Shown here: positions 54,974 to 56,441 of the stretch, one piece after another
Numbering within the stretch: the first letter of the stretch is position 1
Layout: every line of letters begins with the position of its first letter
Assembly (NCBI GenBank): GCA_963713615.1
Contig: CAVQMM010000001.1
Span: 960,001 to 1,024,000 of the forward strand
Source: an uncultured Chlamydiae bacterium
Lineage (GTDB): Bacteria > Chlamydiota > Chlamydiia > Chlamydiales > JAJFMA01
Direction: 5' to 3'
Length of the DNA stretch: 64,000 bases
Notes under the pieces: model-generated
Seen by the model: the letters and a program-made list of their open reading frames with translations, nothing else
Told to the model about the DNA's origin: nothing
Database searches by the model: none
Program-made: the position numbers and the translations under genes

Positions 54974-55317
54974 GGTTTTGGTAATTGCCGAGCTCGAAAC
55001 TGAGGCGCGCTGAGTGCAAGGCGCTCGTGGGGCTTTTTAGGATTTTACCACAGAGAACACAGAGACGCCGCGATAGGAGAGAGAGGAAAGAATTTTTGGT
55101 TTTTTATTTTGGATTCGTCCATTGCTGTCCATATGAAGTAATTGCAGAAGTATTTGGGCTCTCATGGATCGATTCTTTGAAAAAAAAATCACTTTTTTTT
55201 GTGAGAAGGCGATTCTGGAGAGCTTAAGTGGTATGGCACTATCCGGTCTGGAAAGACAGGCTTTTCTCCCTTCCCAGGCCCGAAGGGTCGATATTGCAAC
55301 AGGCCATGGCATCGCCA

Positions 55318-55626
55318 CATAGGCCTCAACCTAAGCCTAACAATCGTATCTCGGCGCGCAGCGCTTTGGAGTGCGGTCGCTTGCGACCGCTTTGGGTTCC
55401 TTGCGACGGTCGTGTGCAACGGCATTACTATAATTCCCTAAGGGTAAAATAGTTAGTACATGCAGCCTTCGACGAATCCATACAATGCCGTTTAGCATTG
55501 CCGTCCCAAGGAACGAAAAGCGGTCGCAAGCGACCGCACTCCAAAGCGCTGCGCGCCGAGATACGATTGTGAAGTCCTAAGTCATTAAGATATAAGCTCA
55601 AAAGACCTGTTAGGTTGAGGCCTATG
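55318..55626 (-). mobile_element. MITE X (309 bp), TSD TGGCATCGCCA
   Basis: Direct repeats 55307-55317 and 55627-55637. Confidence 0.9.
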
Positions 55627-55774
55627 TGGCATCGCCATGGTATATGCCAGGAAGGGATTTCGCAGTCTGAAGGACTGCTACAAGACGCCAGTTTACAAAC
55701 ACCATTTATGCATGCGCTTTATGGCAGCCCTACAGGCTGCTAAAACCGTTTTGGCATATACCATGGCGATGCCA

Positions 55775-56083
55775 CATAGGCCTCAACCTAAGCCTAACAA
55801 TCGTATCTCGGCGCGCAGCGCTTTGGAGTGCGGTCGCTTGCGACCGCTTTGGGTTCCTTGCGACGGTCGTGTGCAACGGCATCACTATAATTCCCTAAGG
55901 GTAAAATAGTTAGTACATGCAGCCTTCGACGAATCCATACAATGCCGTTTAGCATTGCCGTCCCAAGGAACGAAAAGCGGTCGCAAGCGACCGCACTCCA
56001 AAGCGCTGCGCGCCGAGATACGATTGTGAAGTCCTAAGTCATTGAGATATAAGCTCAAAAGACCTGTTAGGTTGAGGCCTATG
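55775..56083 (-). mobile_element. MITE X (309 bp), TSD TGGCGATGCCA
   Basis: Direct repeats 55764-55774 and 56084-56094. Confidence 0.9.
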
Positions 56084-56441
56084 TGGCGATGCCATGGCCT
56101 GTTGCAATATCGACCCTTCGGGCCTGGAAAGGGAATGACTCTCTCTTCACCGGCATCCGATTTTCAGGAAATTGACTTCGGAAAATCGGACTTCTGCAAT
56201 TACCTCATATCGTCCACTAGACCTATCCTAGAATGAACTTAGGAATGGACGACAAGGACGAATCCAAAATAAAAAACCATTTCTTCCTTCCTCTCTCCTA
56301 TCTCGGCGTCTCCGCGTTCTCTGTGGTAAAAATCCTAATTCCTAATCCTCCTCTTTCCCTCCACACTTCTGCCTGTGTAGTCACCGGATGAGCCGATTCT
56401 GATGCCCTAATGGCCTTTTCCTGAGTTCTGTTCGAAAGTAC

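Follow-up and report, generated by a model that had tools for sequence, protein, structure and literature searches.

Nested small repeats in cyanobacteria were reportedly described by Elhai and colleagues in 2008, and IS231A is said to have the target consensus GGG-N5-CCC and to land in the ends of Tn4430. Several ISs target REPs, namely IS1397, ISKpn1, IS621, ISPpu9/10, and ISRm22, as listed in one survey (Tobes and Pareja 2006, PMC1525189), and REP dimers regularly occur within longer palindromes, according to another study (PMC3733652). Here we analyze a locus in a genome of the Chlamydiota (assembly G000; 3.97 Mb in three contigs, of which the main contig, C1, comprises 3.9 Mb) at which six repeat families are stacked one inside another. 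An initial annotation of the surrounding 64-kb stretch of DNA (hereafter the window) had read this stack as a strictly ordered chain of purely non-autonomous elements, each inserted at a defined site in the layer outside it. We consider it likely that the stack arose from several unrelated mobile-DNA systems: the junctions of X with Y and of W with B are landing sites that are reused, whereas Y within W and Z within X likely go back to a single capture each, after which two DDE transposases, neither of them found in the assembly, copied them as cargo. The arrangement looks like a targeting web with frozen cargo, in which known and little-known selfish DNAs serve as mutual landing pads, and not like an ordered six-step chain.

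The nested locus and its counterparts in the window

The nest occupies positions 55027-56340 of the window, in the spacer upstream of trpR (56493-56801, plus strand; PF01371), which is the first gene 3' of it and is given for context only. All six layers claimed for this locus are present. The outermost, layer A, has a left arm (55037-55095, plus strand) made of CACAGAG-type units and a purine tract, which pairs with a right arm (56281-56338, minus strand); the same arm flanks a GxxExxY gene at C1:1855174. Inside A lies a 24-bp inverted repeat that is indeed perfect (55097-55120 and 56256-56279). This hairpin had been taken as the second layer; approximately 20 of the 24 bp, however, belong to the T-rich inner stem of A, which is also present in empty A doublets, and layer B proper comprises the GTCC/GGAC units. 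Two GTCC units stand at the end of the left half of the repeat (together 55097-55130, plus strand), while a third GTCC unit, a loop, and two GGAC units accompany the right half (together 56211-56279, minus strand). Next comes MITE W (55135-56206, plus strand; 1072 bp), with 15-bp terminal inverted repeats and an ATAT duplication (55131-55134 and 56207-56210). W carries as a fixed passenger the REP-like doublet Y (55273 to about 56128), whose two arms, of two small hairpins each, are separated by a spacer of approximately 120 bp. Each arm of Y contains a 309-bp copy of MITE X on the plus strand: copy 1 (55318-55626), with IS231-type ends, is flanked by a perfect 11-bp duplication (55307-55317 and 55627-55637), as is copy 2 (55775-56083; duplication 55764-55774 and 56084-56094). 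Within X sits the GGAG-headed REP doublet Z (55340-55570 in copy 1, 55797-56027 in copy 2), a fixed passenger that is a target of IS66 and IS1634 at other loci. The sum of lengths in the initial annotation (752 + 309 + 11 = 1072) is correct, W measuring 752 bp where it holds a single X (32992-33743) and 1072 bp where, as here, it holds two; once X is subtracted, W is about 432 bp long. Two placements differ from the initial annotation: the insertion point of W is within the left-hand B run, and X interrupts both Y arms and not the center of Y.

The layers recur in other combinations elsewhere in the window. A W containing Y, one X, and Z occupies 12049-12799 (plus strand), with X (12232-12540) in reverse orientation and a GGG-N5-CCC duplication variant that matches the version of the host arm; another, at 32992-33743 (plus strand), has a TTTA duplication, lies inside B runs, and carries X (33312-33620), the first Y arm being empty. 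At 61409-61839, A arms enclose B units and a single W-type end, with a Z doublet directly behind that end; the right W end has been lost. The A doublet at 1578-1958 has a different inner palindrome and is without W, X, Y, and Z, and at 42480-42625 (plus strand) one end of an older X variant, which has other cargo, is followed by a decayed Y arm. Another Z doublet, at 28844-29171, is cargo of a MITE of a different kind, whose ends are those of the intact ISL3 element in this genome. The loci at which recurrence had been claimed thus exist, but at 28.8-29.2 kb and at 61.5 kb Z is not inside X. The window also contains a separate 27-nt palindrome just 5' of the nest (54946-54972; single copy at the BLAST threshold applied), a 160-bp MITE (33778-33937) whose ends resemble a DUF6399 element of the genome and whose copies also interrupt ISAs1-like and IS256-like genes, and two adjacent paralogous giant ORFs (34378-50225; 2689 and 2469 aa) with stretches that are 70-85% similar.

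The layers are far more numerous than expected by chance: genome-wide, layers A, W, X, Y, and Z each give 130-420 BLAST matches; B is the exception, and B triplets number 202 in the main contig versus 8 after base shuffling. Repeats related to the nest locus amount to approximately 120 kb, or 3% of the genome. Each layer maps to a different gene family, which bears out the view that several different enzymes lie behind the layers. Contigs of four independent metagenomes also contain single junctions of Y with X and of X with Z, Y arms that are empty, and the junctions of IS66 and IS1634; the whole nest locus is spanned by none of the metagenome contigs or sequencing-run records compared, the runs matching at most 22% of the window and most shares being small. 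Relatives have only short ends in common with the nest locus. Among five that were searched for trpR, we found no orthologous empty site: the neighbors of trpR differ in three (G001, G002, and G006), and trpR was not found in the other two.

Landing sites and fixed cargo of W and X

The proposal that palindromes serve as targets is borne out. GGAC/GTCC lies at a fixed distance from 180 of 246 W ends, compared with 0.9% of random sites and 1.0% of sites outside ORFs. More precisely, 209 of the 246 end flanks have G at position -8 and 223 have C at -6, so that both ends together give G.C.wwww.G.C. The 9-nt period of B would place the letters of this consensus automatically, which may account for the bias of W toward B. 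W-type ends in G002, G003, and three metagenome loci (L109, L124, and L129) have the same B-type GGAC/GTCC flanks. Landing is also intergenic, as had been supposed: the flank falls inside an ORF of at least 200 aa for only 21 of 333 W-type end matches, and such ORFs make up 73% of the genome. Intergenic hairpins are presumably favored because insertion there is harmless.

For X there are 172 ends, forming 76 pairs, of which 65 have a perfect 11-bp duplication. The site KGG-N5-CCM fits 164 of the 172 ends, and 161 lie in a Y arm; the genome holds 3587 such sites, 969 of them outside long ORFs. X uses both Y arms in both orientations, and the duplicated bases are those of the host-arm allele, which argues that X moved on its own. 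In the tally of empty sites that the initial annotation had proposed, 161 Y cores are empty, and none of the 117 W left ends in the genome is followed by an empty W.

This last result goes against the idea that every layer is repeatedly inserted at its site. Y is present in 82 of 82 left-right W pairs and starts 140-144 nt from the W left end in 50 of 50 copies. Moreover, 217 of 242 outer Y ends abut W, and of the other 25, 9 lie at a HUH gene. The same holds for the innermost layers: Z is present in 75 of the 76 X pairs, different cargo being carried only by one variant of 390 bp, and 56 full X copies show a mean difference of 0.99 nt, Z included, and carry one version of Z, unlike free Z arms. 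These sequence counts suggest that Y-in-W and Z-in-X are frozen junctions, each likely captured once and then copied as cargo. Z is carried, in addition, in ISL3-ended shells (10 arms) and in W-ended shells (7 arms). In other Chlamydiota, X- and W-type ends enclose other palindromic doublets or nothing; the latter include cargo-free W-type elements of 34-37 bp, and examples with other cargo or none are L064, L068, L086, L092, and L072. Capture thus appears to have taken place more than once in evolution, and once per family here.

W is older or more mixed than X. Its copies have a mean identity of 93%, and a perfect 4-bp duplication is found in only 32 of 82 paired copies. Many copies have mirror-image flanks, left-left and right-right pairs occur, there are 19 joints of tandem arrays, and the Y spacer is inverted in 6 of 50 copies; these features show that later recombination between copies has reshuffled W. 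At C1:476526-478848 and C1:2273505-2280484, 5-9 W[Y] units follow one another head to tail with short B hairpins between them, and the joint of such arrays is also present in three of four metagenomes examined.

No parent transposase of X or W was found in G000 by tblastn with six related proteins (E 0.01), and unpaired X and W ends in the genome led to ordinary genes or decayed elements and to no parents. Transposases with matching ends do exist in other genomes, and it is from these that we infer the enzymes acting in trans. The 17-bp ends of X fit the signature of the IS231 subgroup, CAT-7-AA-2-TAA, exactly when compared with Table 1 of PMC2266710, and the 11-bp duplication is within the 10-12 bp of that subgroup (PMC2266710). 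At L088, in another Chlamydiota genome, an IS4 transposase frame, of the YREK-type DDE kind (NF033592, 165 bits, cut-off 115), lies between X-type ends in a decayed copy with one exact X-type end; the ends at L237, L238, and L240 are similar. By its ends and duplication, X is an IS4 MITE of the IS231 type, presumably mobilized in trans. The ends of W match those of DUF772 DDE elements (L161, L214, and L220) at 12-15 of 15 nt, and these elements have 4-bp duplications where both ends are present. The best matches of the L161 protein are to IS1182 (119.8 bits, cut-off 270) and IS5 models, all below cut-off. No transposase-like ORF behind a W end was apparent by eye among 36 metagenome loci. Two sets of candidates were rejected. 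The DDE_Tnp_1 matches that were examined as parents of X or W belong to different IS types: family scans identified IS1634 and a DDE_5 protein, and others are ISAs1-like by sequence reading. Similarly, X copies of 2.2-2.7 kb, considered as autonomous X, are X with an inserted IS66 or IS1634. An autonomous element of the W clade occupies the same GTCC-N5-GGAC palindrome of a dispersed repeat at six of six loci in G317 (L221, L226, L230, L232, L234, and L236).

HUH genes, autonomous elements, and the outer arms

The initial annotation had looked to HUH or RAYT genes flanked by Y or Z, and such genes exist, with Z on both sides of one and Y on the downstream side only of the other. In particular, the single-copy Y1 HUH gene at C1:3243412 is followed by an array that the Y arms match at 87-100%; NCBIfam classes this gene as IS200-type (57.3, cut-off 55), its RAYT score being 21.9 (cut-off 80). 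Z arms match at 89-96% the repeats around a single-copy HUH/RAYT gene at C1:3256780 (NF047646, 83.7 bits, cut-off 80), where three Z arms stand on each side. Both genes have open frames. Note that the head of Z is GGAG, not GTAG or CGTC, and that GGAG is absent from the accessible portions of the two REP surveys searched; Z works like a REP but is outside the two tagged superfamilies (GTAG and CGTC) published there. A DDE-type MITE shell accounts for the majority of the copies of both Y (217 of 242 outer ends) and Z (162 of 275 arms). Because most sit in such shells at one fixed position, they do not qualify as doublets spread by the HUH enzyme itself; free copies of Y and Z may still do so. 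A third HUH gene (C1:3873041, L002) has on both sides a different, GTAG-containing palindrome that is absent from the nest.

The system is not purely non-autonomous, as intact IS66, IS1634, and IS110 elements land in the same hairpins and add layers that the initial annotation had not recorded. Of 18 copies of IS66 (2295 bp), 17 occupy the Z hairpin tip and have an 8-bp duplication; the Z concerned is X-borne in 13 cases and free in 4. For IS1634, 13 of 13 ends found lie at TTGGAG of Z, and every IS110 left end (10 of 10) falls within the loop of the outer Y hairpin. Among internal controls, the nest was the target for 0 of 10 ISAs1, 0 of 7 IS256, 0 of 7 IS607, and 1 of 11 copies of a second IS66 type; related IS66 ends in other genomes have unrelated flanks. 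We found no paper stating that IS66 or IS1634 homes to REPs in a literature search mostly of open-access papers, and these observations add both to the families observed homing to REP hairpins. The IS110 recombinase (NF033542, 173.5 bits, cut-off 140) is associated with the core TC, and in the left non-coding end a predicted stem is surrounded by 7-nt matches to the two sides of the Y target. This is the layout described for bridge RNAs, with the matches as candidate guides predicted from sequence; the matches are short, the candidate left guide agreeing with the target at 7/7 positions in free Y and 5/7 in W-borne Y.

The two outer layers are tied to genes of other kinds. The GxxExxY gene at C1:1855174 (TIGR04256, 147.7 bits) is bracketed by A arms in inverted orientation, and the A arms of the nest are 92-94% identical to them over 48-49 nt. 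Inverted arms were detected by BLAST at only 14 of 25 GxxExxY loci with full flanks in relatives, a set that includes 2 from G000. Tandem 9-nt GGAC/GTCC units, that is B, flank both four-helix-bundle genes of the genome, and TIGR04258 and TIGR02436 match the one that was family-scanned. Of 15 four-helix-bundle loci, 8 (2 from G000) could be parsed by motif, the other 7 being left out of the count; all 8 have GGAC/GTCC runs on at least one side and 4 have them on both. Given these gene-arm associations, the GxxExxY and four-helix-bundle genes may move the A and B arms. The ACACGGAT units with a 76-nt period at 21342-21749 of the window match the arms of the second GxxExxY gene of the genome (C1:1921391-1922625), and thus each GxxExxY gene has its own arm sequence. 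An A doublet at C1:1863015-1864001 encloses a reading frame of unknown kind and a B doublet, which suggests that A arms can bracket passenger genes. In G112 and also in G091, an IS5-family element with a GxxExxY gene (L202:1728-3290) is present in about 12 near-identical copies per genome; A-type arms lie just inside its two ends and surround both of its genes.

B lies on the inner side of 25 of 128 A arms and on the outer side of 1. An A arm is near 14 of 139 B loci, compared with 1.3% at random (approximately eight-fold), and the remaining 125 are away from A; B-in-A is a preference, not a rule. The motif used for A doublets found at least 22 in the genome and missed the nest locus itself, so its counts are a floor. 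The full stack is rare: besides the nest locus, 1 of the 22 A doublets contains B, W, Y, X, and Z, which is a lower bound.

Origin of the stack and comparison with known systems

A strict chain, in which its own enzyme still inserts every layer at a defined site of the layer outside, would fit the biased order of B relative to A (25 arms with B inside, 1 with B outside) and the open frames of the two HUH genes; that W- and X-ended elements in other Chlamydiota have other doublets or no cargo also implies that doublets entered shells more than once in evolution. We nevertheless regard such a chain as quite unlikely. None of the 117 W left ends leads to an empty W, Y has a single fixed position, nearly all X share one Z sequence, unlike free Z, and 125 of 139 B loci are away from A. 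Moreover, the order can be reversed: B, W, and Y all lie inside an older X-type end at C1:3729250-3729800, and B lies inside such an end at C1:1305025.

Alternatively, nesting might involve no partner-specific aiming, each transposase reading a short palindromic consensus, only insertions into spacers surviving selection, and nests simply reflecting how abundant the repeats are. In line with this, G.C.wwww.G.C is a short consensus for W, the related element in G317 uses a GTCC site in a different repeat, X-type elements elsewhere occupy GGG-N5-CCC sites outside Y (L089 and L094), and B-in-A is only about eight-fold above random. Indeed, repeat abundance probably explains part of the W and B junctions, and X and W may owe their bias to the sheer abundance of matching sites, not to recognition of the partner element. 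As a full account, abundance is unlikely: 161 of 172 X ends are in Y despite several hundred other consensus sites outside long ORFs, 17 of 18 IS66 copies share a single 8-bp hairpin tip as their site although related IS66 ends in other genomes have unrelated flanks, and the IS110 left end has its 7-nt matches on both sides of the Y loop around the predicted stem. It is highly improbable, finally, that nests spread mainly by recombination or gene conversion among copies or are partly misassembled. The 50 of 82 paired W without a perfect duplication, the left-left and right-right pairs, the tandem arrays with their 19 joints, and the 6 of 50 inverted Y spacers are what such exchange would leave, but the perfect, allele-matched duplications of 11, 8, and 6 bp need separate insertions, the junctions recur in contigs of four independent metagenomes, and the assembly has one 3.9-Mb contig.

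The reading that we favor, reused landing sites combined with frozen cargo, draws its duplications, site bias, mixed orientations, fixed cargo, and gene-arm associations from sequence counts, and the order of events at the nest locus can be reconstructed as follows. An A doublet, that is the arms of a GxxExxY cassette without the gene, would have landed between genes, and B units, the arms of a four-helix-bundle cassette, would then have appeared at the tip of the A stem. W carrying Y would have been pasted at a G.C.wwww.G.C site supplied by the 9-nt period of B, with a 4-bp duplication, and X carrying Z would have been pasted twice, once per Y arm, at a KGG-N5-CCM stem, with 11-bp duplications. 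At other loci, IS66 and IS1634 would go on to land in Z, and IS110 in Y. A more ambitious joint reading, which we offer tentatively and hold to be doubtful as a whole, is that at least nine families of selfish DNA form a functioning food web in this genome. Its outer platforms would be laid by two systems as yet undescribed, the GxxExxY arms and the four-helix-bundle 9-mer arms, moved by their own genes; a DDE transposase would read the 9-nt period; REP doublets would have switched from HUH enzymes to DDE MITEs; IS66 and IS1634 would read the REP hairpin itself; and an IS110 bridge RNA would be programmed to the next hairpin out.

For five DDE or DEDD systems, this one genome allows the choice of target to be counted over hundreds of empty and filled sites. 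It shows a second route by which REPs are amplified, as cargo of MITEs, and it gives two uncharacterized protein families (GxxExxY and the four-helix bundle) defined DNA arms to test. A literature search mostly of open-access papers gave no report of a stack with several levels, nor of arms associated with GxxExxY or four-helix-bundle genes; three papers (PMC3184786, PMC6006769, and PMC6199540) may bear on novelty.

Among related systems, the IS231 subgroup and its MIC231 cassettes (PMC2266710, PMC6199540) resemble X in end signature, 10-12-bp duplication, target specificity, and transposase-less cassettes moved in trans. They differ in that the host here is a member of the Chlamydiota, the passenger is a REP doublet, and the parent was not found in the genome. 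The REPIN/RAYT system (PMC3116915, PMC3733652) likewise combines inverted REP doublets with a matching single-copy HUH gene, whereas the copy number of Y and Z derives mostly from DDE-type MITE shells and the head of Z is GGAG. IS110 bridge-RNA elements such as IS621 (PMC11208160) share a 2-nt core in a REP and a left non-coding end with candidate guides around a stem; here the core is TC and the guides are 7-nt matches predicted from sequence. The Neisseria NIME and the BIMEs (PMC3184786, PMC3733652) are also spacers of interleaved repeat families that attract ISs, but the layers described here are concentric, have countable duplications, and include arms tied to GxxExxY and four-helix-bundle genes.

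A further parallel is with the REP-targeting ISs. That such elements were already known had been stated in the initial annotation and is correct: they are published for the families IS3, IS110, IS4, IS256, and IS5, the accessible portion of that survey containing no mention of IS66, IS1634, or MITEs (PMC1525189). There, too, REP hairpins are hit at fixed positions by ISs belonging to the IS4 and IS110 families (PMC1525189). The targeting of REPs by ISs is thus published, and what the present locus adds is a stack measured within one genome, in which the targeted REPs are themselves the cargo of MITEs, several levels deep.
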